A DNA stretch of 64,000 nucleotides, taken from Thermodesulfobacteriota bacterium. Its GTDB lineage: Bacteria > Desulfobacterota > Desulfobacteria > Desulfobacterales > JARGFK01. The stretch spans positions 13,937 through 77,936 of the forward strand of contig JBFLWU010000017.1 in the NCBI GenBank assembly GCA_040757625.1. The letters run 5' to 3'. Position numbers and translations under genes: made by a program. The notes under the pieces were generated by a model. The model was not told where the DNA came from and did not search any database. It saw only the letters and a program-made list of their open reading frames with translations. How positions within the stretch are numbered: position 1 is the stretch's first letter; each line of letters begins with the position of its first letter. Positions 5,922 to 42,513 of this stretch are shown in pieces.

Positions 5922-5945
5922 TACCCATAACAGCGGGAGCTTGGA

Positions 5946-7843: not shown

Positions 7844-7867
7844 TTATTAGTTCAAACGTTTCCCCGG

Positions 7868-7884
7868 GGCCCGACCCTCAGGCC
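7868..7884 (-). promoter_or_regulatory. SECIS-like hairpin of arsS
   Basis: GGCCUGA-GGG-UCGGGCC starting 15 nt after the in-frame UGA at 7901-7899. Confidence 0.7.
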
Positions 7885-8903: not shown

Positions 8904-8913
8904 GGCGGGTGGA

Positions 8914-21123: not shown

Positions 21124-22092
21124 ATGACAACCGACCGGGATGCTTTTGCCTTTGTCGTTGAAGGAATCGATTCCGGCAAGCGCCTGGACGTTCTGGTCGC
21201 CTCACGCCTTTCCCATCTCTCCCGCTCGTTTTTAGCTAATCTGATAAACCAAGGCTGGATAACGGTTCAGGGGAAAATAAAGAAACCGGGTTACCGGGTC
21301 AAAAGCGGTGACCGGGTCGAAGGCCGCATCCCTCCGCCGGAGCCGCTGACATATAGGGCCGAACCCATACCGATTGAAATTCTGTTTGAAGATGAGCAGA
21401 TCGTTGTCATCAACAAGCAGCCGGGTCTTGTGGTCCACCCGGCGCCGGGCCATTACAGCGGCACCCTGGTCAACGCCCTGCTGCATCATTGTCCCTCCCT
21501 GGACGGCATCGGCGGAAAAATCCGGCCGGGTATCGTTCATCGGCTCGATAAAGACACCTCCGGTGTACTGGTGGTAGCCAAGAACGATGCCGCCCATCAG
21601 CACCTGACCCGGCAGTTCAAGTCCCGGAAAGTCAAAAAGCGTTATCTTGCTCTGGTTCACGGCCAGGTTGCACAAGACAGCGGAACGGTGGCGCTTTCCA
21701 TCGGCCGGCATCCGGTCGATCGCAAAAAGATGTCCACCCGGAGCCGCAAGGCGCGGGGAGCTGAAACCCGCTGGGAAGCCAGGGAGCGCTTTGAAGGCGC
21801 CACCCTGCTGGAGCTGGACCTGAAAACCGGACGAACCCATCAGATTCGGGTGCATTGCGCCGCCATCGGGCATCCGGTCGTGGGCGACGCCGTTTACGGC
21901 GGCCGCCGGCGTCTGGAGTTGCCGGGAAAAGAGGCTTTGCCGCAGATAAAGATCACCCGACAAATGCTGCATGCCCAATGCCTTGAGCTCGCCCATCCGG
22001 CAGACGAACGGCCGATATCGTTTGAGGCGCCCCTGCCGGCCGACATGTCCGGGTTGCTAGAATATCTTCGAAACATGACTACGCTGCATTAA
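21124..22092 (+). CDS. rluD: RluA/RluD-family 23S rRNA pseudouridine synthase
   Basis: S4 domain, NKQPGLVVHP, HRLDKDTSG, TGRTHQIRVH. ATG 21124 follows the carD stop. Confidence 0.9.
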   Translation: MTTDRDAFAFVVEGIDSGKRLDVLVASRLSHLSRSFLANLINQGWITVQGKIKKPGYRVKSGDRVEGRIPPPEPLTYRAEPIPIEILFEDEQIVVINKQPGLVVHPAPGHYSGTLVNALLHHCPSLDGIGGKIRPGIVHRLDKDTSGVLVVAKNDAAHQHLTRQFKSRKVKKRYLALVHGQVAQDSGTVALSIGRHPVDRKKMSTRSRKARGAETRWEARERFEGATLLELDLKTGRTHQIRVHCAAIGHPVVGDAVYGGRRRLELPGKEALPQIKITRQMLHAQCLELAHPADERPISFEAPLPADMSGLLEYLRNMTTLH

Positions 22093-22162
22093 TTTTGAAG
22101 GCTTACCGGATGGTTCAGATTATAACCCCGTGGGCTAACCGGTTATATTTTGTTCGAAAGAA

Positions 22163-22206
22163 AAGAGCCGGAACCGGAAGCAATTTAGCAACCGGTTCCG
22201 GCTCTT
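22163..22206. terminator. Terminator hairpin between convergent rluD and rnfB
   Basis: AAGAGCCGGAACCGG...CCGGTTCCGGCTCTT. Confidence 0.7.
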
Positions 22207-22241
22207 CATATGATTAGGCTGTTCAGGCAAAGGATTTGACG

Positions 22242-24311
22242 TCAGGCCGCGGCTTTGTCCCTGTTGTAACACAGTCGGCAGCAGGACAGGCAGCGGTCGG
22301 CTTCTCCAAGAGCAGCGTCTTCGCTCAATACCAGGTCGGCCTCCGCAAAGGACTTGATGCGTTCAGATACCGGCAGCTCAGGCATTTTGGCCCGGGGTGA
22401 CGATATGATCCCCGGAACGGTCTTGAAAAGCGATTCCGGAATGTGTTTCTTGCGCAGCGATTTGAGGACGGCCGCGACTTCCTCGCCGGACAGGAACCGG
22501 TGAATCGAGCGGGCCGCCCGACGGCCGCCGCCGATGGCTTCCACCACCAGGGAGGCGCCGGTGGCGGCGTCGCCGCCGGTAAAGATATTGGGGATGTTGG
22601 CCTGCAGCGTTTCCGGATCGGCGTCGATGGTGTTCCAGCGGGTGATTTTAAGTTCTTCAAGGCCCTTGTCGGTTTTAACAAAACCCACATCCGGACCCTG
22701 GCCGATGGCGGTAATCAGCATGTCGACCTCAAGCAGGGTTTCGGAACCTTCGATGGGCACGGGTCGGCGCCGGCCGCTGCTATCCGGTTCGCCCAGCTCC
22801 ATTTTAAGGTATTCCAGATGCGTCACGTTTTTCTGGTCGTCCCCGACGACGCGCACCGGGGCCGCCAGAAAATGGAACTTAACGCCCTCGTGTTCGGCGG
22901 CGACGATTTCGACTTCGTTGGCAGGCATTTCCGTGCGGGTGCGGCGATAGACGATGGTGACTTCCTCGGCGCCCAGGCGCACCAGCGTGCGTACGCAGTC
23001 GATGGCGGTGTTGCCGCCGCCGATGACGGCGCACTTGCGGCCGATGGGAACTTTTTCGCCCAGGCCGATTCTGGCCAGAAAGTCGATGCCGGTATAGCAG
23101 CCGCCGAGGTCTTCGCCTTCCACCTTCAAGGCATAGTCCTGCCAGGCGCCGATTCCCAGGAAAACAGCGTCGTAGCCTTCATCCAAGAGGGATTTCAGGG
23201 TAAAATCGCGTCCCAGCTTCACATCGGTTTTGGCCTGTACGCCTAGATCCAAAATGCCTTCGATTTCCCAGTCCAGCACCTTTTTGGGCAGCCGGTATTC
23301 AGGGATGCCATAGCGGATCATGCCGCCGAGTTTCGGCATGGCTTCAAAGATGGTAACGCCGTGTCCGACCCGGCGCAGAAAATAGGCGCAGCTCAACCCG
23401 GCGGGGCCGCCGCCGATGACCGCAACTTTTTTGCCGGTATCCGGCGCGCAGCTGATGGAATAGCGCCGGCCGGAATTCATTTCAAAATCGGCGGCAAAGC
23501 GCTTGAGCTGGTTGATGGACACCGGTTCGTCCTCGATTCCCCGGCGACAGTAGCTCTCACAGGGGTGCGGGCAGACCCGGCCGCAGGCCAACAGGAGCGG
23601 GTTGCGCTTGCGGATGGTATCCACGGCACCCTTGTAATCGCCGGCCTTGATCCGGGCGATATATTCCGGGATGTCGATTTCTGCCGGGCAGGTCTGCTGG
23701 CAGGGCGCCAGGGCCTGGTCTTCCTGGTTGAGCTGCAGCAGGCGCTCGGACATGGTTTTAACATCCAGGATGTTTTTCGGGCAAACCTTTTCACAGGCGC
23801 CGCAGCCGACGCATTTTTCTTCGTTCACCACCGGATAGCCGTCCGGGCCCATGGAGATCGCGTTGAAAATACAGGATTTGACGCAGTCGCCCAATCCCAG
23901 GCACCCGACGCGGCACTCGCGCTTGCCGCCGTAAACTGCGGCAAGGGCCCGGCAGCTGTTGACGCCCATATAATAAAATTTATCATCGGCCCGCTTGCCG
24001 CCGTCGCAACTGTTCAGGGATTTAAGGGGTTCGACCGATCCGGGGTCCAGCCCCATAACCCGGGCGACATTGGCGGCCGATTCCATCCCCCCCACCATGC
24101 AGACGCTGGGCTTGGCCTTGCCCCCCACCACCGCGGCCGCGGCCGCGCTGCAGCCGGCATAGCCGCAGCCGCCGCAGTTGGCGCCGGCCAGAAAGTTTTC
24201 AACTTCAGCGATGCGGGGATCTTCATAAACATAGAATACTTTAGAAGCGACGCCTAAGAGCGAGCCGCAGGCCGCTCCCAGGATCAGCATGAAAAGAATG
24301 GCTTCGGTCAC
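22242..24311 (-). CDS. rnfB: RnfB fused to a GltD/NfnB-like FAD/NAD(P) oxidoreductase
   Basis: TM helix, GANCGGCGYAGC, CLGLGDC, CVGCGACEKVCP, then PCQQTCP, CGRVCPHPCESYC, GGGPAG, YGIPEYRLP, GGGNTAID, VYRR. Confidence 0.9.
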   Translation of the reverse strand: MTEAILFMLILGAACGSLLGVASKVFYVYEDPRIAEVENFLAGANCGGCGYAGCSAAAAAVVGGKAKPSVCMVGGMESAANVARVMGLDPGSVEPLKSLNSCDGGKRADDKFYYMGVNSCRALAAVYGGKRECRVGCLGLGDCVKSCIFNAISMGPDGYPVVNEEKCVGCGACEKVCPKNILDVKTMSERLLQLNQEDQALAPCQQTCPAEIDIPEYIARIKAGDYKGAVDTIRKRNPLLLACGRVCPHPCESYCRRGIEDEPVSINQLKRFAADFEMNSGRRYSISCAPDTGKKVAVIGGGPAGLSCAYFLRRVGHGVTIFEAMPKLGGMIRYGIPEYRLPKKVLDWEIEGILDLGVQAKTDVKLGRDFTLKSLLDEGYDAVFLGIGAWQDYALKVEGEDLGGCYTGIDFLARIGLGEKVPIGRKCAVIGGGNTAIDCVRTLVRLGAEEVTIVYRRTRTEMPANEVEIVAAEHEGVKFHFLAAPVRVVGDDQKNVTHLEYLKMELGEPDSSGRRRPVPIEGSETLLEVDMLITAIGQGPDVGFVKTDKGLEELKITRWNTIDADPETLQANIPNIFTGGDAATGASLVVEAIGGGRRAARSIHRFLSGEEVAAVLKSLRKKHIPESLFKTVPGIISSPRAKMPELPVSERIKSFAEADLVLSEDAALGEADRCLSCCRLCYNRDKAAA

Positions 24312-24359
24312 AATTTCCTCCCTGAACAGACGACAACCGGTCGCTTTGAAAAACTATTA

Positions 24360-24935
24360 TTAGACCATCCCCTTGAAGGCGAAAAACGCAAGGGAGCACA
24401 TCCCGGCCGTAACAAGACCAATGGAAGTGTCCTGCAGGGGTTTCGGCACCCGGGACAGCAGGATGCGCTCGCGGATGCCCGCAAACAGGATCAGCGCCAG
24501 CCCGAACCCTGAAGAATATCCGAAAGAGGACACCAGGCACTCAATGAAGCTGTAGTCTTCGTTGACGTTGATCAGACATACGCCAAGAACCGCACAGTTG
24601 GTGGTGATCAGCGGCAGGAAGATGCCCAGCCCGGCATACAGCGCCGGTATGCTCTTTTTCAGGAACATCTCGACAAACTGCACAAGGGCTGCAATGATAA
24701 GGATAAACGACATCGTCCGTAAATACTCCAGCCCGAATTTTTTCAGGATAAACATCTCGGTAAGCCATGTGGCGGCGCCTGCGAGCACCAGCACAAATAC
24801 AACCGCCATGGCCATGCCCACCGCCGTCTCCATTTTCTTTGATGTTCCCAGAAAAGGACAGTTGCCCAGATATTGCATCAACAGAATATTGTTGGTCAGG
24901 ATGCAGCTGATCGCCAGTAACAGGTAATTGCTCAT
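24360..24935 (-). CDS. rnfA: Rnf subunit A
   Basis: YLGNCPFLG, LGIFLPLITTNCAVLG. Confidence 0.92.
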   Translation of the reverse strand: MSNYLLLAISCILTNNILLMQYLGNCPFLGTSKKMETAVGMAMAVVFVLVLAGAATWLTEMFILKKFGLEYLRTMSFILIIAALVQFVEMFLKKSIPALYAGLGIFLPLITTNCAVLGVCLINVNEDYSFIECLVSSFGYSSGFGLALILFAGIRERILLSRVPKPLQDTSIGLVTAGMCSLAFFAFKGMV

Positions 24936-24944
24936 AAGATGCTC

Positions 24945-25538
24945 CTATTTTTTTCCAATGAAATTCATGACGCAGAGCAGGAGACCGAGGCAAACGAAGG
25001 CGCCCGGCGCTTCGATCATGAAATTAAAGGGCTGGAATGAAGGCCCGAAAACCGAATGCCCGTAAAACGTTCCGCTTCCAAAAACCTCCCGGATGGAGGC
25101 AAGAACCGTCAACGACATGGCATAGCCGATTCCCAAACCCAGTCCGTCGGCAAAAGAAGGAATAATCCCGTTTTTATAGGCAAAGGCTTCAGCCCTGCCA
25201 AGCGGAATACAGTTGACGACAATGAGGGGTATGAATATTCCCAGTTTTAAAAACAGGGGATAGGTATAGGCCTGCATGAGAAGCTCAACAACCGTAACAA
25301 ATGTTGCAACAACGATAATAAAGCACGCGATCCTTACTTTGGAAGGGATGACCTTGCGCAGCATCGCGACAAGGATATTCGAGCCGACCAGAACAAAAAT
25401 AACGGCAATACCCATACCGATGGCATTTTCAACCGTTTTTGTGACTGCAAGGGTCGGACAAAGACCCAGCACCAGTCGAAACGGCGGTATTTCTTTCCAC
25501 AACCCTTTGGTGAATTCCTGAACAATCGTCTTTGCCAT
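24945..25538 (-). CDS. rnfE: Rnf subunit E
   Basis: LGLCPTLAVT, FIPLIVVNC, GRAEAFA. Confidence 0.92.
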   Translation of the reverse strand: MAKTIVQEFTKGLWKEIPPFRLVLGLCPTLAVTKTVENAIGMGIAVIFVLVGSNILVAMLRKVIPSKVRIACFIIVVATFVTVVELLMQAYTYPLFLKLGIFIPLIVVNCIPLGRAEAFAYKNGIIPSFADGLGLGIGYAMSLTVLASIREVFGSGTFYGHSVFGPSFQPFNFMIEAPGAFVCLGLLLCVMNFIGKK

Positions 25539-25562
25539 TTTGATCTCCCTGTTGATACGGCC

Positions 25563-26156
25563 TTATTTGGCGACACTTTTCAACTTTTCAGTAAGCTGGG
25601 GCTTCAACCGTTTATATGCTTCCCCGGCATCCGTCAGCGCTGCGGAAACGCCGCGGGACGTTTGGGTGGCGCCGCTGACCGCGTCCACCTGTCCGCCGTC
25701 GGCTTTGACCTTATAAGGGTCCCCCAAAGGAAGACCTTTGAACTGGGCCGCAAAAGCCGGATCTGTTTTTGCACGGGAACCGACGCCGGGGGTTTCACTG
25801 TGGGTGGTGATGCCGATGCCGACGATTTTGTCGTCCTTGGTGTTGACGCCGACCATGACGCCCAGATCGCCGCCAAACCCCTTGCCGAAACTTTCAAAGG
25901 CGACGGTATTGGCTTCGCCGTTAAAAATACCGACAAAAAAACTTTTTTCAACGCCGGCGTCTTTCAGTTTAAACCGGTTGGCGATGGGGTCGTTGGACGC
26001 GCCCTGAAGGATCGCATTGATGGCCGGGCCCTTGACGAATTTGAGCTGCTGGTTGTCGATTTTCTCCTGGGTCCCGTTCCTGAGCGCTGCAAGCAGCCCG
26101 CCGGAAAAGGAGCATAAGACCGTCAAGACGATAATCATTTTTAGCATTTCACGCAT
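25563..26156 (-). CDS. rnfG: Rnf subunit G
   Basis: TM anchor, HSETPGVG, FMN site DAVSGAT. Confidence 0.92.
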   Translation of the reverse strand: MREMLKMIIVLTVLCSFSGGLLAALRNGTQEKIDNQQLKFVKGPAINAILQGASNDPIANRFKLKDAGVEKSFFVGIFNGEANTVAFESFGKGFGGDLGVMVGVNTKDDKIVGIGITTHSETPGVGSRAKTDPAFAAQFKGLPLGDPYKVKADGGQVDAVSGATQTSRGVSAALTDAGEAYKRLKPQLTEKLKSVAK

Positions 26157-27117
26157 GGCTGTTGACCTTTCCTAAAGCTTTAGGCCGAATCTTGTCCAGA
26201 AGCGGATTGGCAAGATTCATGAGAAGAATTGCAAAAACCACCCCATCGGCATGGCCGCCGATATTCCGGATGAGCATGATCAAGACTCCCGCGCCCGCTC
26301 CGTATATGAGCATGGGAATGAAATTGACAGGAGACGACGAGTCTTCCGTGGCAAGGAAAAAAGCCCCCAAAATCGTATTGCCGGTTAAAAGATGAAATAC
26401 AGGGCCGGCGAAGCGGCCGGAATTGGTCAGGTGGAAAACAAGCGCGGTGATGAAGATCGCTGCAAGAAACGAAAAGGATATCTCCCAGCGGATGAAACCT
26501 CTCAGGATCAAGTAGAGCCCGCCCAGGATGAGCCCCAGTCCGAAAGTCGCCCCGAGTCCGCCGGACTGGCGGCCCAGCAAGAGGTCTCCCGCACTGAAAG
26601 AGGCGGCCGCGGCCGAGCCGATTCTTTTTACGGCGGCCAGGGGATAAGCCATGTTAAAATCAAAATTAAAATTGAGCAGGGCCTGGTCGAAATTCATAAA
26701 ACCCTTCCAGGAGAGCGTCAGGATGGCGATTGCCACCAGGGCCGGGTTAAACGGGTTGGCGCCGATGCCGCCATAGATATGCTTGCCGACGACGATGGCC
26801 ACAAAGGTGCCGGTGATCACCAGCCACCAGGGGGAAGACGCCGGCAGCAGCATGGCAAACAGCATGCCGATCAGCGCCGCATTGCCGTCCGTGATGGTGA
26901 CGGGGCGTTTCGTTGCGCGGTTCATCAGCAGTTCCCAGAAGATCGCAGAGGAAACGGACAGCGACACCACCGCCAGGGCCGGCATGCCATACTGAATGAT
27001 GCCGAACAGTACGGCCGGCAGGGTCGCCAACAAAATGTTGTAATAGCGTATGGACACCTTGCTTTCATCGTGCCAGAAAGGCGCATGTGAAACGATGAAT
27101 TTCTTCTGGTTAAACAT
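26149..27117 (-). CDS. rnfD: Rnf subunit D (FMN-Thr motif degenerate)
   Basis: GGIGANPFNPAL, GAFFLATE, DGVVFAILLMN. Confidence 0.9.
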   Translation of the reverse strand: MFNQKKFIVSHAPFWHDESKVSIRYYNILLATLPAVLFGIIQYGMPALAVVSLSVSSAIFWELLMNRATKRPVTITDGNAALIGMLFAMLLPASSPWWLVITGTFVAIVVGKHIYGGIGANPFNPALVAIAILTLSWKGFMNFDQALLNFNFDFNMAYPLAAVKRIGSAAAASFSAGDLLLGRQSGGLGATFGLGLILGGLYLILRGFIRWEISFSFLAAIFITALVFHLTNSGRFAGPVFHLLTGNTILGAFFLATEDSSSPVNFIPMLIYGAGAGVLIMLIRNIGGHADGVVFAILLMNLANPLLDKIRPKALGKVNSHA

Positions 27118-28393
27118 TCGTTACCTCCGCGGTTTCGATTCGACCGAGCTCAAATTTTGCCAGCCGGATATATTGAAAGATCGGCATTCGGGAAACACAG
27201 ACATAACTGCACAATCCGCATTCAAAGCAGGAATAAAGGTCGTACAAATCGGCGGCTTCCTGGTATTGTCCGGCCTCCAGAAAGCGGACCAGCATGTTGA
27301 CCGGGATCCTGGCCGGGCAGATTCGGATGCATTCTCCACAATTGATGCAGGGATAATCGGAAACAAAGGGGATGCCCGCTTTATCCTGGATCATGAGAGC
27401 GTCGGTATCCGGCCGGACCGGGGTATCCAGGGTAAAGATCGATACCCCCATCATGGGGCCGCCCAGAATGACGCGGTCCATTTCATTAACGGTTTCTCCG
27501 ACCGTCTTTACAATCTCTTTAATCGGGGTGCCGATTCTGGCGGATACCAGAACTTTGCCCCCGTCTTTTTTAATGACCGTCAAGAGTTTCTGAAAGGGAA
27601 TTTTGCCTGTTTCGTAAGCACGTCCGATGGATGCCACGGCCTCGGCATTTATCATCGCAACTCCCAGATCTTCCGCGGCTTTTCCGGCCGGGATCACCTT
27701 TCCCAGGACGTCTTTGAGGATCATATGCGGCAGCGCCGAAGGATAGGTCGGTGCAATGAATTTTACCTCCGCCCCAATGGAACCATACCCGCCCATAATG
27801 TTTACCGGAACGACCATAATAACGGCTTCAATACCGGTAATTTTTTTCAATACCGCAATCCCATGGGCTATGGCGTCGATCCGGGACTGGACCACACATT
27901 GATGCGTGGCCACCAGCAAATCCCTGTCGGCGCCGTTAATAACGATGGTGTGGATCGGTTTGTCGGGATCGCCGAAAAGCTTCAAGGGCGGGCAGCCGGG
28001 AACGCCGGCCAGAAAACCGGCGGCGGAATCCAGGGTCGGTTCCTGGGCTGCGGCGGCAAACTGGTCGTCCGGATCTTCAGCTTTGGAGGTATTGATCGTA
28101 ATGGCTGTGCCCACCTGGCCCGCTTCTCCCCGGAAGGGCGCCACGCCGGAGATGGTTCCGGTTGCCGGTGAAATGGCGTATGCGTCGCCGCCTGCGACAA
28201 GGGTCAATTTCTGTCCGGTTTTAACCGCATCGCCGATTTTGGGTAAAATCGCATTTTTCCCATCGGCAGCGCCATCCAGGATCAGCGTCACTTGGGGCGG
28301 CAGGGGAATATTGATCGGTTCGGGAAGTCTGCCCTCTAAGGGAATGTATTGGATCCGGGGTGTCGTCAAACCGCCAAATAATTTTTTCAGCAT
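27110..28393 (-). CDS. rnfC: Rnf subunit C (divergent)
   Basis: SPATGTI, RIGTP, GGPMMG, CINCGECIRICP, CFECGLCSYVC. Confidence 0.87.
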   Translation of the reverse strand: MLKKLFGGLTTPRIQYIPLEGRLPEPINIPLPPQVTLILDGAADGKNAILPKIGDAVKTGQKLTLVAGGDAYAISPATGTISGVAPFRGEAGQVGTAITINTSKAEDPDDQFAAAAQEPTLDSAAGFLAGVPGCPPLKLFGDPDKPIHTIVINGADRDLLVATHQCVVQSRIDAIAHGIAVLKKITGIEAVIMVVPVNIMGGYGSIGAEVKFIAPTYPSALPHMILKDVLGKVIPAGKAAEDLGVAMINAEAVASIGRAYETGKIPFQKLLTVIKKDGGKVLVSARIGTPIKEIVKTVGETVNEMDRVILGGPMMGVSIFTLDTPVRPDTDALMIQDKAGIPFVSDYPCINCGECIRICPARIPVNMLVRFLEAGQYQEAADLYDLYSCFECGLCSYVCVSRMPIFQYIRLAKFELGRIETAEVTNV

Positions 28394-28459
28394 GGTCTCA
28401 ACCTTCTACTTTATCGGTGATAATTTTAAGTGAGCTTCATAACCAATGAGGCAATTCGT

Positions 28460-28840
28460 CTAAGGAACATGACAGGATGCGCATTCCTGAGGGCCGGCTT
28501 CAATCTGCGTGTGGCACTCAATGCACTGCTTGTGAAACGCATCCGACCGTTTGGGCACGCTGGCATCATCGCTTTCCGGTTCGTGGCACTGGAGACATGA
28601 GGGCGCCTCTGTTTCGCCTTCTTCCAGGGTATGGTGACAATCGCGGCAGGAAAGGCCGTAGCCGGAAGCGTCTGTATGGGTCTTGTGGTCAAACAGAACC
28701 GTGCCGGCAATGCCCTGAAACATGATCCTGACCGGGCGCTCCGGCGTTTTTGCGGGAAACGCGGCATAACTGATCACACCCACAATGAACAAAACGATAG
28801 CCAATCCATAAGCTGTCTGCAGCTCTTTTTTTGAAACCAT
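28460..28840 (-). CDS. Tetraheme cytochrome c3-family protein with N-terminal anchor/signal
   Basis: Four CxxCH motifs (CRDCH, CLQCH, CIECH, CASCH), VLFDHKTH, AFHKQC. Confidence 0.9.
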   Translation of the reverse strand: MVSKKELQTAYGLAIVLFIVGVISYAAFPAKTPERPVRIMFQGIAGTVLFDHKTHTDASGYGLSCRDCHHTLEEGETEAPSCLQCHEPESDDASVPKRSDAFHKQCIECHTQIEAGPQECASCHVP

Positions 28841-28954
28841 CTAAACAAGTCCTTTCACAGTTTTTGTTATTGACCAAGCCGTGGGCGCAAAACAAAAATC
28901 AAAGAAGTCGGTTAACACAATGCCAATAGGCTTTCAAGCATTTTTTAAATCGTC

Positions 28955-29914
28955 TTAAAAGGCAAATCGCAGGGAAAGCCGGATGGATGATGACTGGGGA
29001 TCGCCGGAAAGGTCGATTTTCGTGTTTTTTTTCAAATTTTCAATAAATCCTTCTGTTTTTGTGCGATTGAACTTGTGGGCGCTGCCGACGGCGCCATAGA
29101 TGTTGCCGGCGTAGAATCCCACTTCAACAAAGGTGAGAAGCGCACCCAGGGCTTTGTTGTCGTTGTCGAAGGCTTCATATCCCGCCCAGATTAAAGCGCC
29201 GTTGAGTAAAAACGCGATCAGGGCATCCTGATAGCGTTCGCAGTAAAGGAAACCGCCGCCCGGGACAATCGAGAGGGCGCCTGCCAGAACGGGGCTTTTT
29301 GCGGCGATGCCGGCTCTCTGCGACAGTTCCGCCGAGAGGCGTTCCAGTCTGAATTTTTCCCGGTTGGCAGAACTTATTTTTTCAAAGTATATCCGGGCAT
29401 TATCCCATGAGGCCGTTTCGATGTAAATCCAGCCGAGACGGTAGAAGGCTTCATCCCTGACATCGACAGCCTTGGACAGGGTAATCAGATTATGCAGGGT
29501 GATCACGGCAGCCCCGAACTGGTTGAGATGAATCTGGCTTTCACTGACCATCAAATAGGATTTGACGGCCCATGGGGTGTCTGTAAATTTTTCAATCACC
29601 TCATTAAAGGAAGCGGCGGCATCCGCATACCGCCGGTCCAAATAGAAAGACATGCCACACTGATACATGGCCTGGGCAAGGCGGCCGTCATCGGGAAAAA
29701 AATAGATAAAGCGCTTGTATTCGTCTACGGCCCTGGAATATTCGCCCGTTGAGAAATAACGCTCGGCAAAACGGTACTGGGCATCGGCGTCAATCTGAAC
29801 GACCGCTCCGGCAGCATGGGATAAGACGGGGGTCCAGAGCAGAAATGCGCAGAGCAGCCCACGGCTGGTCAGCCGGAAGGGATAACTGAACAAAGCGGCG
29901 ATTCGTCGAAGCAT
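28955..29914 (-). CDS. Exported TPR (BamD-like) protein with C-terminal hydrophobic segments
   Basis: Signal peptide, TPR-like repeats (AVDEYKRFIYFFP), KSPVLAGALSIVPGGG motif. The start could be 29935. Confidence 0.7.
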   Translation of the reverse strand: MLRRIAALFSYPFRLTSRGLLCAFLLWTPVLSHAAGAVVQIDADAQYRFAERYFSTGEYSRAVDEYKRFIYFFPDDGRLAQAMYQCGMSFYLDRRYADAAASFNEVIEKFTDTPWAVKSYLMVSESQIHLNQFGAAVITLHNLITLSKAVDVRDEAFYRLGWIYIETASWDNARIYFEKISSANREKFRLERLSAELSQRAGIAAKSPVLAGALSIVPGGGFLYCERYQDALIAFLLNGALIWAGYEAFDNDNKALGALLTFVEVGFYAGNIYGAVGSAHKFNRTKTEGFIENLKKNTKIDLSGDPQSSSIRLSLRFAF

Positions 29915-35300: not shown

Positions 35301-37088
35301 ATGTTTTTTAACGTGGCGCTGATTGTTTCGCTTGTCGTCTTTGGAATCGGCCTGATCTACAAGGTTTCCACCTGGTTTCGCCGCAAGATCGGCAGGGGGG
35401 CGGACCGCTATTCGGCAACCATGCGGTTTGCGGCGGCGATCAAAGGGATCGCGGGGGTTTTTTTCAGCCGGAACATCTTCACGCTGATCAGGGTTTTTAT
35501 CGTCGACGTGCTTTTGCAGATGCGCATCTTCAAAGAGGATTTTCTGCGCTGGCTGATGCACATGCTCATATTTGCCGGGTTTATGCTGCTGCTCCTGATG
35601 CATGCCCTGGACAAGCTGATTACGGCTAAGATTTTCAGCGATTATTATGCCACGCTGAACCCCTTTATGTTCCTGCGCGACCTTTTCGGACTGATGGTGG
35701 TGGCGGGGGTCGCCATTGCCGTCTACCGCCGGTTTATTTTAAAGGTGCCCCGGCTCAAAACCAGCGGCATGGATCTCTACGCCATCCTGATTGTTGCCGT
35801 TATCATGGTGTCCGGGATTCTGCTGGAGGGCGTCAAACTCACTTCCCCGACCGTTTTTCGCAATATGGTGGAGCAGTACGGCAGCCTGGACGACGAGGAG
35901 CAGGTAAAGGCCCTGGAAAGTCTTTGGGTAAAAGACTTCGGCCTGGTTTCCGCGGAAGTCGGGGGCCCGTTTGAAGAAGACATCCTGGAGAAGGGGCGCG
36001 AAATCCACGAGGAGAGTTGCGCCGCCTGTCATTCTCCAACGAAATGGGCATTCGGCGGGTACGCATCGGCAAAGGCCCTGCGGCCGATCGCCCTGGGACT
36101 GGACGACGCCGGGGCGGCCGACATGCTCTGGTATATACATATTCTGGCCTGTTTTCTGGGGCTGGCCTATCTGCCTTTCAGCAAGATGTTTCATGTCTTT
36201 GCCAGCCCCCTCAGCCTGATGGCCGCCGCGGTCATGAACAAGGAGACCTCCCATCCGGCCAATATCGCCACCCGCCAGGCCATGGAACTGGATGCCTGCA
36301 TGCATTGCTGCACCTGCAGCCTGCGCTGTTCGGTAGCACCCGCTTGCGACAGGTTCAATAATTCCAACATTCTTCCTTCTGAAAAGCTGGCTTTTCTTAA
36401 AACCTACGCCGACGGCAAGGCCCTCGGTGAAAAGGGGATGTCCGCCATTCAAGAGGGGATTTATCTGTGTACCAACTGCGACCGCTGCACCGTGGTGTGT
36501 CCGGCGGGCATCAATTTGCGCGAGCTGTGGTTCAACGTGCGCGAGGAACTCATCCACAAAGGGGTTCCGACGGCGATGATGCTCACGCCGTTTTCCTTTT
36601 ACCGCGGGCTGAACCGGCAGTCCCTGGAGGCTGAAACTTACGGAAAGCCGCTGGATGCCGCCGCCGGGGCGATTTCGGCAAAATTTAAGATGATCGATGC
36701 CCCCGACCAGGTCGTCGTCTTAAACGCCGCTGATAAGGGATTAAAGGGGCAGGCCGATGCGTCGTCACAGGCCAACACCTATGCCTACTGCTTTGCCTGT
36801 GAAAACTGCAGCACGGTTTGCCCGGTCGTAGAAAACTATGAAAACCCCCAGGCGGTTTTAAAACTTCTGCCGCACCAGATCATGCGGTCGCTGGGCCTGG
36901 GTCTGAAGGATCTGGCAATGGGGTCGGCCATGCTGTGGAATTGCCTGACCTGCTACCAGTGCCAGGAGCACTGCCCCCAAGGGGTCAAGGTGACCGACGT
37001 GCTGTATGAGCTCAAGAATTTAGCGGTTAAAGAGGCCCGACAGACAAACGGGTCCCGGCCGCCCATGGAAGATCAAAGCAAAGAATGA
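35301..37088 (+). CDS. NarI/HdrE-like membrane cytochrome b domain with a CxxCH loop, fused to two HdrC-like [4Fe-4S] dicluster domains
   Basis: About five TM helices with His pairs (LMHMLIFAGFMLLLLMH; YIH...PFSKMFH), CAACH, and four Cx2Cx2Cx3C motifs; directly upstream of hdrB. Confidence 0.85.
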   Translation: MFFNVALIVSLVVFGIGLIYKVSTWFRRKIGRGADRYSATMRFAAAIKGIAGVFFSRNIFTLIRVFIVDVLLQMRIFKEDFLRWLMHMLIFAGFMLLLLMHALDKLITAKIFSDYYATLNPFMFLRDLFGLMVVAGVAIAVYRRFILKVPRLKTSGMDLYAILIVAVIMVSGILLEGVKLTSPTVFRNMVEQYGSLDDEEQVKALESLWVKDFGLVSAEVGGPFEEDILEKGREIHEESCAACHSPTKWAFGGYASAKALRPIALGLDDAGAADMLWYIHILACFLGLAYLPFSKMFHVFASPLSLMAAAVMNKETSHPANIATRQAMELDACMHCCTCSLRCSVAPACDRFNNSNILPSEKLAFLKTYADGKALGEKGMSAIQEGIYLCTNCDRCTVVCPAGINLRELWFNVREELIHKGVPTAMMLTPFSFYRGLNRQSLEAETYGKPLDAAAGAISAKFKMIDAPDQVVVLNAADKGLKGQADASSQANTYAYCFACENCSTVCPVVENYENPQAVLKLLPHQIMRSLGLGLKDLAMGSAMLWNCLTCYQCQEHCPQGVKVTDVLYELKNLAVKEARQTNGSRPPMEDQSKE

Positions 37089-37128
37089 AGGCCTTCATTT
37101 ATAAAAGCTTAACTGATGGGAATCGAAT

Positions 37129-37998
37129 ATGAAATTTGCGCTGTTTCTGGGCTGTAATATCCCGGCCCGAGTCAAACCATATGAATCATCGGCCAGGGCG
37201 GTTCTGGACAGGTTGGCGATTGAAGTGGCGGATGAACGTGAGTTTAAATGCTGCGGCTATCCCGTCCGCAATGTCGATTTTAAAATGTACCTGATCTTCT
37301 CGGCCCGAAATCTGGCCCTGGCCGAGCGGCAGGGGCTGGACATGCTGACGCTTTGCAAGTGCTGCTACGGCAGTCTGAAGAAGGCCGCGCATGTGCTCAA
37401 AACGGATGCGGCCCTCCGGGATGAAGTTAATGCAATCCTGGCACCGGAAGGACTGGCCTTTAACGGGAAGACCGCCGTCAAGCATTTTTTGTCGGTCCTC
37501 TATCACGATGTCGGGCTGCCGTCCCTGAAGGAAAAAATCGCGCGGACATTCAAGGATTTAAAAATTGCGACCCATTACGGCTGTCATGCCTTGCGGCCCA
37601 GCGACATCATGCAGTTCGACAATCCGGTGGCGCCGATTATTTTTGATGAACTGGTGACCGCCACCGGGAGCAAAAGCATTGAATGGACGACCAAGCTGGA
37701 ATGCTGCGGGGCGCCGCTTCTGGGCGTCAATGACGATCTTTCCATGGATCTGGCCGCTCGGAAACTGGCCGACGCCAAGCAGGCCGGGGCGCAATACCTG
37801 TGCGTCGCCTGCCCCTATTGCCAGATGCAGTTCGGTACGGTCCAGGAGATGATCGTATCGGCCCGGGGTGCCGGTTATCGGCTCCCCACGATCCTGTACC
37901 CGCAGCTTCTGGGGCTTGCCCTGGGAATTGACCGTCGGGTGCTGGGGATTGAAACGCAACACACGGATATCAGTGGTATCGAAGCCTTTTTAGTATAG
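37129..37998 (+). CDS. hdrB: Heterodisulfide reductase subunit B
   Basis: FLGC, CCG, CKCC, HYGCH, ECCGAP, ACPYC (two CCG domains). Confidence 0.93.
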
Positions 37999-38006
37999 GA
38001 GCTGCA

Positions 38007-41000
38007 ATGTCTCAGAAAAAGATTGGTTCGGTTATGGTTGTCGGTGGCGGCATCGCCGGGATGCAGGCCGCGCTGGATGCGGCCGATTCCGGTTATTATG
38101 TCTATCTGGTTGAGCAGACCGCCTCCATCGGCGGCGTGATGTCTCAGCTGGACAAGACGTTCCCCACCAATGACTGCGCCATGTGAATTATTTCACCCAA
38201 GCTGGTCGAGGTCGGCCGGCACATTAATATCGAGCTGCTGACGCTTTCAGAGGTCACTGGCATATCCGGAGAGGCCGGGAATTTTGAGGTGACCATTATC
38301 CGGCATCCCCGCTATGTGGATGTAGAAAAGTGCATCGCCTGCGGTCTGTGCGCGGAAAAATGCCCCAAAAAGGTTACCAGCGAGTATGACAGCGGTCTCG
38401 TCAAACGCAAGGCCATATATGTCAAGTATGCCCAGGCGGTCCCCCTTAAATACGCCATTGACGCCAAGGAGTGTATTTACCTGACAAAGGGCAAGTGCAA
38501 GGCCTGTCAGAAATTCTGCCCCACCGGGGCGGTGAATTTCGAGGACCAGCCCAGCGAGAAAATCCTGAACGTGGGATCGGTGATTATCACCAGCGGCTGC
38601 GAGGTGTATGATCCCCATACCCATGACGTCTACGGTTACGGCAAATCCCCCAACATCGTCACCAGCCTTGAATTCGAGCGGATCCTTTCGGCGTCAGGGC
38701 CTTACGGCGGCCACCTGGTGCGGCCGTCCGACGAAAAGGAGCCCAAAAAAATCGCCTGGCTCCAGTGCGTCGGATCCCGCGATGTGCACATCGGCGCCAG
38801 GGGTTACTGCTCGTCGGTGTGCTGCACCTATGCCATCAAGGAGGCGATGCTGGCCAAAGAGCACAGCAAGGAGGGGCTGGATGCCGCTATTTTTTACATG
38901 GATATCCGCACCCACGGCAAAGATTTTGAAAGATATTACAACCGCAGCCGGACCGCCGGCGTTCGCTTTGTCAAATCGAAAATAACGAATATCGTTCCCC
39001 AGGCCGACAGCGGCCTGCAGCTCATCCGCTACATCGACGAGTCCGGTCGGCGGGTGGAGGAAGCTTTTGACATGGTGGTCTTGTCCGTCGGACTGGGGGT
39101 GAGCCAGTCGGCGGTGGCGCTGGCCAACCGGATGAAAGTCGCCCTGGATTCCTATCAGTACGTCGCCACCAGCAGCTTTGCGCCGGTGCAGACGTCGGCT
39201 CCCGGTATTTTTGTCTGCGGCGCCGTGGAGGCCCCCAAAGACATTCCCTCTTCGGTGATTGAATCCAGCGCCGCCGCAGGGATTGCCGGCAGCAGCCTGA
39301 TCGAATCGCGCTGGAGCCTGACCAAGAAAAAGGAAATTCCCCCGCAGACGGATACCCGCGGGGAATCGCCCCGTGTCGGGGTCTTTGTCTGCAACTGCGG
39401 CACCAACATCGGCGGGGTGGTCAACGTGCCCGGGGTGGTTGAATATGTCCGAACGCTCCCCTATGTCGTCTACGCCGAGGATAACATGTTCAGCTGCTCC
39501 CAGGACACCCAGAACAATATGGCCAAGCTGATCAAGGAAAAAAACCTGAACCGCATTGTGGTGGCGGCCTGCACCCCCAAAACCCATGAGCCGCTTTTTC
39601 AGGAAACCGTGACCAATGCGGGGATCAACAAATACCTGTTTGAAATGGCCAACATCCGCAACCAGTGCTCCTGGGTCCACGGCGCCGTTCCGGCCGAGGC
39701 CACTGAAAAGGCCAAGGAACTGACGCGCATGGCCGTGGCCAAGGTCGCCCTGCTGGAGGCCTTAAGCGAACCGGTCTTGGAGATCAATCAGACCGCCCTG
39801 GTCATCGGCGGCGGTTTTGCGGGGATGACGGCCGCCCAGACCCTTTCGCAGCAGGGCTATCATACCATCATCGTCGAAAAGGGTGACCGGCTGGGGGGAC
39901 AGGCGCGGCATCTTTATGAAACCTGGCGGCGGGAAGATATTCAACTGAACCTGGAGACGCTCATTAAAGGGGTAACGGACGACGAAAGGATCGATGTCTA
40001 TCTGAATGCCGCGATCACCAAGGTGGACGGTTTTGTTGGAAATTTCAAGACCACCATCAAAACCGGCGACACGGAGCAGGAGCTGGCCCACGGGGTCACG
40101 ATCATCGCTTCGGGCGCCAGCGAACTGAAACCGGACCTGTATCTTTACGGAAAGAATCCGCGCGTTCTGACGGCCCTTGATCTGGATCGGAAATTTATTG
40201 AAAACGATCCGGGGCTGAAAGAAAAAAAGAGCGCCCTTTTCATCCAGTGCGTCGGTTCGCGCATCCCGGAGCGTCCCTATTGTTCCAAGGTCTGCTGCAC
40301 CCATTCCATCAACAGCGCCCTGCGGCTGAAGGAACTGAATCCGCAGATGGACGTATTTATTCTATACCGGGACCTGCGTTCCTACGGACTGCGCGAAGAT
40401 CTGTATCGCGAAGCCCGGGCCAGGGGCATCATTTTTATCCGCCACGATTTTGATAAGGGGCTGGACGTTGCCGCCGAAGGCGCGGATCTGGCGATCCGGT
40501 TTACGGATACGATCCTGCGGCGCCGGATGGAGATCCGTCCGGACCTGGTGGTCCTGGCGACGGCGATCACCCCGCCCAAGGAAAATCCGCTGGCCCAGCA
40601 GTATAAGGTGACCCTTAACGACGACGGCTTTTTTATGGAGGCGCACGTCAAGCTCCGACCGGTGGACTGCGCCACGGACGGGGTTTTCATCTGCGGGCTG
40701 GCCCATGCTCCCAAACCGCTGGACGAGTCGATTGCCCAGGCCCAGGCGGCGGCCACCCGGGCGGTTACCCTGCTGGCCAAGAAAACCATCCAGATGAGCG
40801 GCACGGTGGCGCATACGAATCCGATGAACTGCAGCAGTTGCGGGGTCTGCGTGGCGCTGTGCCCGTATTCGGCCCCGTCCTTTACCCAGAAGGGTCCCTT
40901 TTCCGGAAAGGCCGAGATCAATCCGGTTTTATGCAAAGGCTGCGGCCTGTGCGTGGCGTCCTGCCGATCCGGGGCCATACAGTTGAGGGGGTTTGACAAC

Positions 41001-41045
41001 GACCAGATCTTCGCGCAGATTTTTTCTTTGCGCGAGGCGGTTTAA
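38007..41045 (+). CDS. hdrA: Heterodisulfide reductase subunit A, selenoprotein, two FAD modules (1012 aa); TGA at 38184-38186 read as Sec
   Basis: ATG 38007 after AGGAG: [18 protein letters not shown]...[17 protein letters not shown], continuing in frame into the track ORF 38289-41045. The HdrA consensus here is PTNDCxxC. Confidence 0.92.
38201..38220 (+). promoter_or_regulatory. SECIS-like hairpin of hdrA
   Basis: GCUGGUCG-AGGU-CGGCCGGC starting 15 nt after the UGA. Confidence 0.72.
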
Positions 41046-41097
41046 TGTTTTAAGAATACCTGTTCGGTGTTCATTACAATAAAAGGAGAAAAGTGGC

Positions 41098-41529
41098 ATG
41101 ACCGATTGGGAACCCAAAATCATCAGTTTCCTGTGTAACTGGTGCAGCTACGGCGCCGCCGATCTGGCCGGTGTCGGCCGGATGTCCTATCCGTCCAACG
41201 TCCGGGTGATCCGCATTCCCTGTACCGGCCGCATGAGCCCCAAATTTTTTCTGGCGGCGCTGCGCGAAGGCGCCGACGGCGTCTGGGTGTCCGGGTGACA
41301 TCCCGGTGACTGCCATTACCTGGAAGGTAATTATTACGCGCGTCGCAAGTTCGCACTTTTTGAAAACCTGGCGGAATACATGGGGCTTGAGCCGGGCCGT
41401 ATTCATTACTCCTGGATTTCTTCGGCCGAGTCGACCAAGTTCGTCGACGTGGTCAAAACGGTCACGGAGGCGGTCAGGGCGCTGGGCCCCAACAAACAAT
41501 TTGTGAAGAAAATGGCTAAGGTGGCGTAA
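41098..41529 (+). CDS. flxD: FlxD/MvhD-like [2Fe-2S] subunit, selenoprotein; TGA at 41296-41298 read as Sec
   Basis: [35 protein letters not shown] (consensus GCHPGDCHY), continuing in frame to TAA at 41529. Confidence 0.92.
41315..41331 (+). promoter_or_regulatory. SECIS-like hairpin of flxD
   Basis: AUUACCU-GGA-AGGUAAU starting 17 nt after the UGA. Confidence 0.72.
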
Positions 41530-41531
41530 AC

Positions 41532-42479
41532 ATGCTGGAATATATTGATAGCATCCGGAAAATAGCCGAAAAGATATTAAAGGAAGGCACCGTCGAAATG
41601 GTCATCGGGTTTCGCAGGGGAACCGTGCCGCTGATGAACGAACCATGCGTTGTCAAAAAACCCGAGGATGTGAAACATCTGGTATGGGACAGCAGCTGCG
41701 GCGTTAACCTGGCGAATTATCTGCCCGACCGCAAGGAAAAGATCGGCATTGTGGCCAAAGGCTGCGATTCCCGCAACATTGTTACCCATATCATTGAAAA
41801 CAAGATCAAAAGGGAGCAGCTCTATATCATCGGGATTCCCTGCAAGGGGATGATCGATCGGCGCAAAATTACCGGGATGCTGGAAGTTGAAATAGAAAGT
41901 GCCGTCGAGACGGCAGAGGGGATCACGGTCAAGGGCGGCGGGGTTGAAAAAACCTTTCGAAAAGCGGATGTGCTGCAGGACAACTGCGCCATCTGCATTC
42001 ATCGCAACCCGGTCCTGTCCGACGAACCGGCGGCAGGGCCGGTGGTGGAACAGCAGGGCGTGGACCGGTACGAAGACGTCCGCCGGATCGAAGGGATGGC
42101 TACAGAAGAAAAATTTCGGTTTTTTGACGACCTGCTGGCCGAGTGCATTCGCTGTTATGCCTGCCGCAACGCCTGCCCCCTGTGTTACTGCCCCACCTGC
42201 TTTGTGGATGAATCCCGGCCCCAGTGGGTCGGCAAGGGGCAGGATCCTTCGGATATCAGGACATTCCATTTTTTAAGAGCGTATCATTGCGCCGGCCGCT
42301 GTACGGATTGCGGCGCCTGTGAACGGGCCTGCCCGATGGGGATCAAGGTCCGGCTCCTGACCAAAAAACTGGAAAAAGACGCTTTGGAACTTTTCAACTG
42401 GGAGGCGGGCTTGTCCCTGGAGGTCAGGCCGCCGCTGGATACCTATAAACCCGAAGATCCGGACGAATTTATCAAGTAG
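41532..42479 (+). CDS. flxC: FlxC (FrhB/FdhB-like Fe-S subunit)
   Basis: AKGCDSR, CIRCYACRNACPLCYCPTC, HCAGRCTDCGACERACP. Confidence 0.85.
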   Translation: MLEYIDSIRKIAEKILKEGTVEMVIGFRRGTVPLMNEPCVVKKPEDVKHLVWDSSCGVNLANYLPDRKEKIGIVAKGCDSRNIVTHIIENKIKREQLYIIGIPCKGMIDRRKITGMLEVEIESAVETAEGITVKGGGVEKTFRKADVLQDNCAICIHRNPVLSDEPAAGPVVEQQGVDRYEDVRRIEGMATEEKFRFFDDLLAECIRCYACRNACPLCYCPTCFVDESRPQWVGKGQDPSDIRTFHFLRAYHCAGRCTDCGACERACPMGIKVRLLTKKLEKDALELFNWEAGLSLEVRPPLDTYKPEDPDEFIK

Positions 42480-42513
42480 GATCAGGACCGCTTCTACACA
42501 AAGGGCGCAACAC

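Follow-up and report, generated by a model that had tools for sequence, protein, structure and literature searches.

A Tol2-type Rnf operon with an NfnL/GltD-type module on RnfB and a c3-type cytochrome: a candidate NAD(P)H:cytochrome c oxidoreductase

Introduction

By which route do electrons cross an Rnf complex in which the flavin sites of RnfC and RnfD are missing, RnfB carries an additional flavin module, and a small cytochrome c is encoded at the head of the operon? This question is raised by a gene cluster of a Thermodesulfobacteriota bacterium, located within a 64,000-nucleotide stretch of DNA (GenBank assembly GCA_040757625.1, contig JBFLWU010000017.1, positions 13,937 to 77,936) that we call the window and to which all coordinates of the operon refer. 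An original prediction, made from the sequence, had proposed that the canonical path from ferredoxin to nicotinamide adenine dinucleotide (NAD) through RnfD and RnfC is broken, and that electrons run instead between a periplasmic cytochrome c3, RnfG, RnfAE and the flavin domain of RnfB, possibly with bifurcation. Here we report that the locus very probably encodes a complete and functional Rnf of the Tol2 type ('Rnf2') found in Desulfobacterota, and that its gene content is best explained by a complex that may exchange electrons between NAD(P)H and a periplasmic cytochrome c. We put the probability of this explanation as a whole, Rnf2 membership together with mode of action, at roughly 0.5.

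Rnf2 has been described before. The Rnf of Desulfobacula toluolica Tol2 is reported to be of a different type, with an RnfB of about 700 amino acids that contains NAD+-binding sites, and with an RnfC that lacks the NADH-binding and soluble-ligand-binding domains and needs a partner other than NAD(H) (PMC5109826, the D. multivorans paper, which credits the Tol2 description to Woehlbrand et al. 2013). Both D. multivorans and D. autotrophicum have an Rnf1 of the A. woodii type in addition to Rnf2, with a 15-kDa cytochrome in the rnf2 cluster, and a different mode of action has been suggested that 'awaits experimental verification' (PMC5109826). Rnf2 belongs to the core genome of the Desulfobacteraceae, which the abstract of PMC11887813 credits with much of the carbon oxidation in marine sediments; it was abundant and constitutive in six strains by proteomics, and a pathway drawing connects it with ferredoxin, NADH and NADP pools (PMC11887813). 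Prior accounts thus already cover the large RnfB, the reduced RnfC, the cluster cytochrome and, as an idea, a non-classical mechanism, and the suggestion that the arrangement is novel does not stand. The excerpted accounts (PMC5109826, PMC11887813) do not mention the clade-wide replacement of the RnfD flavin Thr by Y, A, F or D, nor the roughly thirty remodelled RnfD positions, the decaheme-linked fusions of Desulfovibrio and Pseudodesulfovibrio, or the second motif-less family that we describe below. They only hint at an electron path via RnfB, RnfAE, RnfG and the cytochrome, which we regard as a reasonable hypothesis.

Results

The operon encodes all six Rnf subunits and a c3-type cytochrome

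Seven genes run head to tail on the minus strand from 28840 to 22242 in the order cyt-rnfCDGEAB, with gaps of at most 66 bases and two 8-base overlaps, and all seven reading frames are intact. Matches to Pfam and NCBIfam families show that the six Rnf subunits C, D, G, E, A and B are co-encoded in this one cluster. The features are as follows.

28460..28840, minus strand: tetraheme class III (c3-type) cytochrome c, 126 amino acids, first gene of the operon, N-terminal membrane anchor (4 CxxCH, PF02085)
27110..28393, minus strand: RnfC variant, 427 amino acids, RnfC fold with 2x[4Fe-4S], lacking the loops for flavin mononucleotide (FMN) and NADH (alignments; TIGR01945 below cut-off)
27986..28009, minus strand: RnfC residues 129-136, AGVPGCPP, in place of the G-G-A-x-F-P-T flavin loop (alignment)
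27920..27937, minus strand: RnfC residues 153-158, NGADRD, in place of NGAECEP (alignment)
26149..27117, minus strand: RnfD variant, 322 amino acids (PF03116, TIGR01946)
26638-26655, minus strand: RnfD NMAYPL (sequence)
26644..26646, minus strand: RnfD Tyr158, at the position of the FMN-bearing Thr (A. woodii T156) (alignment)
25563..26156, minus strand: RnfG, 197 amino acids, periplasmic, FMN-binding domain (NF045876, PF04205)
25665-25676, minus strand: RnfG SGAT flavinylation motif (sequence)
24945..25538, minus strand: RnfE, 197 amino acids (NF009070, TIGR01948)
24360..24935, minus strand: RnfA, 191 amino acids (TIGR01943)
22242-24311, minus strand: whole rnfB fusion gene, 689 amino acids (reading frame)
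23727..24311, minus strand: RnfB part of the fusion, residues 1-195, with a transmembrane helix, a PF04060 iron-sulfur (Fe-S) cluster and a 2x[4Fe-4S] ferredoxin-like domain (Pfam, structure alignments)
22242..23726, minus strand: NfnB/GltD (NfnL)-type module of RnfB, residues 196-689, with Fer4_20 2x[4Fe-4S] and Rossmann folds for flavin adenine dinucleotide (FAD) and NAD(P)H (Pfam, NCBIfam, alignments)
22941-22949, minus strand: YRR of the RnfB module, residues 455-457 (sequence)
22269-22292, minus strand: C-terminal CLSCCRLC of RnfB (sequence)

A scan of 22000-29200 for promoters and terminators found no more terminators than expected from shuffled sequence and no clear signal of an operon boundary.

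The flavin and NADH sites of RnfC and RnfD are replaced

To place the window operon among its relatives, we compared it with 80 related loci, ranging from 71% to 35% RnfD identity, from one scan of species-representative genomes; the window itself is excluded from the trait counts at these 80 loci.

In HMMER alignments of RnfC to the solved chains of A. woodii, C. tetanomorphum and A. vinelandii (9eri_C, 7zc6_C and 8ahx_C), AGVPGCPP lies under G-G-A-x-F-P-T and NGADRD lies under NGAECEP, so the motifs noted as missing are indeed replaced. We take the loops GxGGAxFPT and NGAECEP to be the flavin/NADH sites by analogy with NuoF-type folds. Family scores point the same way: RnfC reaches 185.5 bits against TIGR01945, under the cut-off of 245.95, its match to PF01512 is weak (39.9 bits) and begins at profile position 19, and Pfam gave no PF10531 (SLBB) match in the window RnfC. 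The Fe-S motifs are retained, as had been claimed. All eight cysteines (C349, C352, C355, C359, C389, C392, C395 and C399) are present, and they are invariant across 71 RnfCs, in 39/39 variant and 32/32 canonical proteins. An AlphaFold2 model of RnfC has a predicted local distance difference test score (pLDDT) of 88.5, and Foldseek aligns it to RnfC chains with template-modelling (TM) scores of 0.77-0.81 and to full-length NqrA chains with 0.64-0.67. The alignments and the loop states at the related loci support the view that RnfC has no canonical NAD(H)/FMN site, and that this is a conserved rather than a degenerate state.

RnfD scores 307 bits against PF03116 and 242 bits against TIGR01946 (cut-off 207). 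Its Y158 aligns with the Thr of TATPL in the solved A. woodii and C. tetanomorphum chains (HMMER). By counting along this alignment we equated that Thr with A. woodii T156, the site of covalent FMN (PMC11889175). The reported NMAYPL thus stands where (S/T)xATPL is expected, with Tyr158 at the flavin Thr site, and the NqrB of the window keeps SGATPL (FSGATPLA at residue 216), also as reported. No D..[ST][GSA]A[TS] (ApbE-type) motif occurs anywhere in the window RnfD. Across the 80 loci, the site is occupied by T in 32, S in 2, Y in 21, A in 20, P in 2, F in 1 and D in 1, and is unreadable in 1. The variant clade also departs from the canonical residue at thirty further positions, each of them conserved in at least 85% of canonical RnfDs. 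Among the best 120 relatives of the window RnfD (69-100% identity), Tyr precedes PL in 108 and His in 1, and the search pattern missed the other 11. In a 122-row alignment, made of the window and 121 of the best 150 cluster representatives (280-420 amino acids), the site is T in 87 rows and S in 8, and the non-Thr states are concentrated among the closest representatives. An absence of the ApbE-type flavinylation site of RnfD, again as a conserved and not a degenerate state, is supported by this distribution.

The best-scoring NqrB chain, 9ud3_B, reads SGAY at the position of RnfD Tyr158. This chain is presumably NqrB-T236Y, an engineered FMN-less mutant.

RnfB carries an NfnL/GltD-type module

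Residues 7-199 of RnfB align to 7zc6_B (E 3.5e-46) and 9eri_B (E 3.2e-42). Behind this part, residues ~196-689 match PF14691 and PF07992, and PF00070 as well, and the module scores 523.8 bits against NF009410 (cut-off 516). Solved NfnL-type modules align to residues ~181-681 with E values of 1e-99 to 1e-133; the closest are 9n5u_A (3.5e-133), 9bov_A (1.8e-130) and 8oh5_C (4.5e-117), and NfnL/NfnB chains 5jca_L and 4ylf_B follow at ~1e-100. The module carries the FAD motif GxGxxG, the NAD(P) motif GxGxxA and YRR. The assignment of a full GltD/NfnB-type FAD domain with YRR is thus borne out by Pfam, by NF009410 and by the solved NfnL-type chains, and the motifs support a complete NfnL/GltD-type NAD(P)H-FAD unit. 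In Csac NfnABC, the FAD of this module terminates the chain and accepts electrons from NADPH (PMC11829005), and NfnB alone catalyses NADPH-linked ferredoxin:NADP+ exchange (PMC12221290).

The fusion is stable among relatives, with all of the best 120 matches to the fused RnfB measuring 674-724 amino acids. The Fe-S cysteines are conserved in 24/24 fused proteins, except C243 (22/24). C674, C677 and C681 of the C-terminal CxxC(C)xxC motif are also found in 24/24, and YRR is kept in 21/24 full-length fused RnfBs. An AlphaFold2 model of the whole fusion has a mean pLDDT of 63.4, in which only the FAD/NAD core is good and the Fe-S regions and the C-terminal tail fall below 50.

Three fused RnfBs of one subclade (L006:10617-12680, L007:13090-15174 and L014:12871-14928) have degenerate FAD (GGD) and YRR motifs, and L007 has a degenerate GxGxxA too.

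RnfG, RnfA, RnfE and the cytochrome

RnfG scores 256 bits against NF045876 (RnfG_DVU2794; cut-off 205), a match that places the complex with the Rnf of sulfate reducers. It reads DAVSGAT at residues 158-164, in agreement with the claim that SGAT is kept, and the flavinylation Thr is present in all 75 readable loci. RnfE lies above the cut-offs of NF009070 and TIGR01948, and RnfA scores 243 bits against TIGR01943 (cut-off 229). In A. woodii, the membrane [2Fe-2S] is ligated by RnfA C25 and C113 and RnfE C25 and C108 (PMC11889175). The corresponding ligands in the window are RnfA C26 and C114 and RnfE C27 and C110, which are kept at 35/35, 35/35, 36/37 and 37/37 variant loci, respectively.

The variant clade also has extra cysteines in both proteins: RnfA C120 (30/35, canonical 0/28) and C11 (22/35, canonical 0/28), and RnfE C72 (33/37, canonical 1/31) and C189 (29/37, canonical 0/31).

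As had been noted, a tetraheme c3 heads the operon, directly upstream of rnfC. Its four CxxCH motifs are at residues 65, 82, 106 and 120, and it scores 54.7 bits against PF02085 (cut-off 22.9); four CxxCH within ~100 residues together with the c3 family profile identify it as a class III cytochrome c. Against the TmcA equivalog NF045722 it reaches 63.5 bits, below the cut-off of 114, and by score it is not TmcA. A profile built from 26 cytochrome homologues matches HmcA-type cytochromes and the c3 chain 3cao_A (4e-18). By these matches the protein is nearest to complex-associated c3 domains. The anchor/hinge residues G21, P33, P36 and R38 are invariant in 26/26 homologues, and a conserved membrane anchor fits a fixed subunit of a complex. 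A complex prediction with the soluble domains of the cytochrome and RnfG and four hemes returned a score of 0.00 ('no answer'), which speaks neither for nor against binding. Alignments, family scores and motif checks thus confirm all five sequence observations of the original prediction.

Motif loss, fusion and cytochrome occur together on one branch

We next scored four traits at each of the 80 loci, with the following outcome.

25/80 loci: RnfD non-Thr; RnfC variant; upstream multiheme cytochrome (4, 5, 8 or 10 hemes); RnfB fused
32/80 loci: RnfD Thr or Ser; RnfC canonical; no upstream cytochrome; RnfB unfused
2/80 loci (L043, L055): RnfD non-Thr; RnfC variant; no cytochrome; RnfB unfused, 265 amino acids
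2/80 loci (L026, L036): RnfD non-Thr; RnfC variant; cytochrome present; no adjacent RnfB
19/80 loci: too short for reading all four traits

A multiheme cytochrome accompanies 25/25 fused operons with a readable upstream region, and no locus among the 80 combines a canonical RnfC with the fusion or the cytochrome. With the same trait states in 25/80 loci, the observation is not due to chance. In a quick maximum-likelihood tree of RnfD (79 rows; L038 and L041 were left out for their truncated RnfD), 43 cytochrome-linked variant rows are separated from 36 rows by a branch with 98% support in the Shimodaira-Hasegawa-like approximate likelihood ratio test (SH-aLRT). The other side of this branch holds 34 canonical rows together with L043 and L055. 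A single supported branch means that the traits were inherited together from one or a few events, and do not represent many independent trials.

The expectation that motif loss co-occurs with the fusion holds for the 25 loci with all four traits, but loci of the L043/L055 type lose the motifs without fusion or cytochrome. Among the 120 clusters listed by a search with the L055 RnfC, 37 lack the GG[A/S]xFP loop; 35 of these 37 also lack an ECEP-type motif and 2 keep it, while the remaining matches are canonical proteins. The L055-type RnfCs form a second motif-less family (Desulfonatronovibrio, Desulfonatronum), with neither fusion nor cytochrome in L043 and L055. Because this family is unfused, cytochrome-less and motif-less, motif loss is not tied to the fusion, and a mechanistic tie between the two appears weakened.

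Several other arrangements were seen at these loci. Downstream of the rnfCDGEAB operons of L043 (4875-9828) and L055 (4966-9917) lie usp and rseC, and an apbE gene precedes the operon of L055. A fused RnfB with a decaheme cytochrome is found in Pseudodesulfovibrio (L042), Desulfovibrio caledoniensis (L045) and L046. At L042:12233-12754 and in the equivalent gap of L045 (12221-13101), an extra open reading frame of ~174 amino acids, with no Pfam match, lies between rnfE and rnfA. Canonical, Syntrophaceae-like rnfABCDGE loci have a separate GltD-like gene of 467-534 amino acids within ~1 kb downstream (L047:12991-14391, L049:12790-14391, L068:4875-6311), which may be an unfused counterpart of the RnfB head. 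In L036 (13650-14558), rnfA is followed not by rnfB but by a rhomboid gene and a protein that joins an RnfB-type PF04060 Fe-S domain to DUF3786.

The window operon very probably belongs with Rnf2

The window operon resembles the published Rnf2 in its 689-residue RnfB, an RnfC without NADH and SLBB parts, a small cytochrome gene upstream and the order cyt-rnfCDGEAB. Its RnfD falls within a 39-row clade (99% SH-aLRT) with loci of Desulfobacula, Desulfonema and Desulfotignum, a set that did not include the Tol2 strain itself. The Desulfobacula loci in this clade (L023, L024, L027 and L028) have fused RnfBs of 694-696 amino acids. The RnfD flavin site differs, being Tyr in the window and Ala in the Desulfobacula group. 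With a best RnfD identity of 71% to any species-representative locus, the operon is a new sequence member; viewed by itself, it is one more intact operon of a type already described.

Neighbouring genes

Besides the rnf operon, the window encodes a complete nqrABCDEF operon, cooS, hdr-like genes, dsrC and pyruvate:ferredoxin oxidoreductase, a neighbourhood that fits a sulfate-reducing organism. The NqrA (1222-2613, plus strand; NF003761, 456 bits) has two complete RnfC-like CxxCxxCxxxCP motifs in its C-terminal part, C392-C402 and C431-C441, and looks like an RnfC-to-NqrA intermediate within the same genome; a 2025 review describes NqrA as having no redox cofactor. Just downstream of nqrF (7172-8996, minus strand) lie an FtrB-family double-selenoprotein homologue, a glutaredoxin-like gene and an ArsS-type radical SAM (seleno)protein. 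A further cluster (35301-44877, plus strand) contains hdrC/B-like and hdrA-like genes, a ferredoxin-domain gene, sulfhydrogenase/AsrAB-like beta and gamma subunits and dsrC, and is another candidate cytoplasmic electron-transfer module of the same sulfate reducer.

Discussion

A proposed electron path

We propose that the window Rnf2 may work as an ion-translocating NAD(P)H:cytochrome c oxidoreductase that could run in either direction, a mode of action to which we give somewhat less than an even chance. Hydride would be exchanged between NAD(P)H and the FAD of the NfnL/GltD-like module of RnfB, and single electrons would then pass through the two [4Fe-4S] clusters of this module. They would move onward via the ferredoxin-like clusters of RnfB to its membrane-proximal cluster, and from there to the [2Fe-2S] between RnfA and RnfE. 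The putative covalent FMN on periplasmic RnfG would accept them next and pass them to the membrane-anchored tetraheme c3, which would tie into the redox network that the sulfate reducer maintains in its membrane and periplasm. Of the canonical U-shaped path, the second half (RnfD FMN, riboflavin, RnfC Fe-S, RnfC FMN, NAD+) would be cut at the RnfD flavin and at the RnfC flavin/NADH site. This would leave RnfD and RnfC as a scaffold, their riboflavin and Fe-S sites perhaps with a side function.

Ion coupling would follow the part of the complex that is preserved. For A. woodii, the pumping of ions has been attributed to a redox cycle of the RnfA/E [2Fe-2S], which is reduced from the proximal RnfB cluster and oxidised again through the RnfG FMN (PMC11889175). 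This RnfB-RnfAE-RnfG segment keeps every predicted cofactor ligand in the window.

A number of points weigh against this path. The claim that the canonical route through RnfD and RnfC is broken holds for the NAD(H)/FMN site of RnfC and the flavinylation site of RnfD, both of which are gone, but 'broken' goes too far. The eight RnfC cysteines are kept in 39/39 variant proteins, with conservation that reaches down to about 25% identity, and most RnfDs retain the two riboflavin ligands (A. woodii N123 and D249), with N in 37/45 and E or D in 43/45. Given the invariant cysteines and the mostly retained riboflavin ligands, the D/C arm may still carry electrons. At the other end of the path, the NAD(P) and FAD motifs are degenerate, with the Fe-S cysteines kept, in three of the 24 fused RnfBs (L006, L007 and L014), so that some lineages must use a partner other than NAD(P)H. 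Although YRR is in line with relatives that use NADPH, it is no proof of specificity. The midpoint potentials of NAD(P)H and c3-type heme leave only a small driving force, which makes forward pumping with NAD(P)H alone doubtful. For RnfB, PMC5109826 names NAD+. Finally, in D. alaskensis G20, the decaheme cytochrome of the operon was dispensable under conditions where Rnf was needed (PMC4215793), a point that applies here if the Rnf of G20 is of the variant type.

Alternative explanations

The retained cysteines and riboflavin ligands could be accounted for by a ferredoxin:NAD(P)+ oxidoreductase that uses the whole U-shaped loop with its ends swapped. Ferredoxin or another low-potential protein would dock at the RnfC clusters, and electrons would pass from RnfC via riboflavin and a non-covalent or alternative RnfD cofactor to RnfG, RnfAE and RnfB, leaving as NAD(P)H at the fused FAD, with the cytochrome as a side branch. 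Such a route is consistent with the invariant RnfC cysteines (39/39), with the intact RnfC fold (pLDDT 88.5; TM 0.77-0.81 to RnfC) and with the riboflavin ligands of RnfD. It also agrees with the drawing that ties Rnf2 to ferredoxin, NADH and NADP pools (PMC11887813) and with the absence of a phenotype of the G20 dhcA mutant under most conditions (PMC4215793). However, none of the 45 non-Thr loci retains the periplasmic flavin site of RnfD, the window RnfD offers no other ApbE-type motif, and thirty canonical RnfD positions are replaced. A cytochrome in 25/25 readable fused operons would also go unexplained. We consider this route unlikely.

Bifurcation or confurcation at the RnfB FAD, as the original prediction had entertained, would split the electron pair of NADPH, sending one electron to the cytochrome and one to ferredoxin, the latter by way of the C-terminal Cys motif, the RnfC clusters or both. 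In NfnSL-type enzymes, bifurcation takes place at the same module (5jca_L and 4ylf_B, ~1e-100), the C-terminal CxxC(C)xxC is retained (C674, C677 and C681, 24/24), and RnfC and RnfB are in contact in A. woodii (PMC11889175). Yet in NfnABC and Stn, the closest solved relatives of the module, this FAD does not bifurcate and serves as a terminal entry point for NADPH (PMC11829005), and a Pfam search of the operon genes found no NfnA/NfnS-like [2Fe-2S]-FAD partner with an NAD site. Direct electron transfer between RnfB and RnfC is not considered likely in A. woodii (PMC11889175), and nothing in the model, whose RnfB tail is predicted at low confidence, puts that tail near the FAD. The suggestion of bifurcation is thus left without support, and we regard it as improbable.

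An ordinary ferredoxin:NAD+ Rnf, with the RnfC and RnfD flavins bound through unrecognised motifs, would agree with six present and conserved subunits and with databases that label the proteins plainly as Rnf subunits. The replacement of the RnfC loops and the RnfD Thr throughout the 43-row clade, against their retention in all 32 fully readable canonical loci, argues in the other direction, as do the RnfC score under the TIGR01945 cut-off and the missing NADH and soluble-ligand-binding domains of RnfC reported in PMC5109826. This makes such a complex highly improbable. A decaying operon en route to loss, which the missing motifs taken alone might suggest, is rejected as effectively refuted by conservation: the seven frames are intact and tightly spaced or overlapping, more than 120 clusters at 69% identity or above exist for RnfD and for the fused RnfB, the B-AE-G cofactor ligands are invariant, and the proteins are abundant in cultured relatives (PMC11887813, PMC5109826).

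Implications of an NAD(P)H:cytochrome c oxidoreductase

If NAD(P)H-to-periplasmic-cytochrome transfer is true, it would name a donor for the membrane complexes of species with few or no periplasmic hydrogenases. A wider and more tentative proposal is that Rnf2 arose by an NQR-like module swap with loss of the RnfC and RnfD flavins, as a stand-alone ion-translocating NAD(P)H:cytochrome c oxidoreductase, and that, as a missing electron link from cytoplasm to periplasm, it supplies the pool of c-type cytochromes in completely oxidising sulfate reducers that are poor in hydrogenases and, through this pool, Qrc, Tmc and DsrMKJOP. Replacement of the RnfD flavin Thr, by Tyr in the window, would then be a natural counterpart of the engineered FMN-less NqrB. 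Rnf2 would provide a natural test of whether the RnfB-RnfAE-RnfG segment alone suffices for ion pumping, and likewise of the exchange of input and output modules during Rnf/NQR evolution.

Comparison with known systems

A 2025 review of RNF and NQR calls the cofactors of the membrane subunits 'strictly conserved', and its text contains no occurrence of Desulfovibrio, sulfate or cytochrome c (PMC12174285). With canonical Rnf (9ERI, 7ZC6, 8AHX), the window complex shares the six subunits, the [2Fe-2S] ligands of RnfA/E, the covalent-FMN motif of RnfG, an RnfC fold with two [4Fe-4S] clusters, and the anchor and proximal clusters of RnfB. It differs in lacking the FMN/NADH loops of RnfC and the Thr of RnfD, and in adding the NfnL/GltD-type module on RnfB and the cytochrome gene. 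In Rnf2, the NAD(P)H-binding part thus lies on a different subunit than in canonical Rnf, and a small multi-heme protein is attached.

Na+-NQR, including the nqrABCDEF of the window (1222-7166), offers a parallel. In both systems, a pyridine-nucleotide/FAD module at the RnfB/NqrF position feeds a [2Fe-2S] and a periplasmic FMN subunit, and the RnfC/NqrA homologue lacks a flavin/NADH site. In contrast, the module here is of NfnL/GltD type and not of NqrF type, NqrB keeps the SGAT for covalent FMN that the window RnfD has lost, and the presumed acceptor is a periplasmic cytochrome here and quinone there. For Na+-NQR itself, a proposed evolutionary route has RnfB giving way to a new nucleotide module and RnfC decaying into NqrA (PMC4014512).

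The Rnf/MmcA system of Methanosarcina acetivorans is similar in that a multiheme cytochrome c gene heads rnfCDGEAB. This Rnf does not use NAD(P), and its RnfG has been proposed to pass electrons to the cytochrome (PMC4023990). According to a preprint, RnfB, D, G and C of this complex retain their known cofactor sites (10.1101/2022.07.20.500911). It differs from the window complex in its ferredoxin donor and in an RnfB that is not described as fused, a comparison made by description, with no Methanosarcina among the 80 loci.

The RnfB module itself most resembles NfnL/NfnB, GltD and NfnABC/Stn, with which it shares two [4Fe-4S] clusters (Fer4_20), the FAD and NAD(P)H folds, YRR and a C-terminal extension, and it aligns to 9bov_A, 8oh5_C and 9n5u_A. 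Unlike in NfnL and NfnABC/Stn, the module here stands behind a membrane-anchored RnfB, with neither an NfnA/S partner nor an Fdh-like domain.

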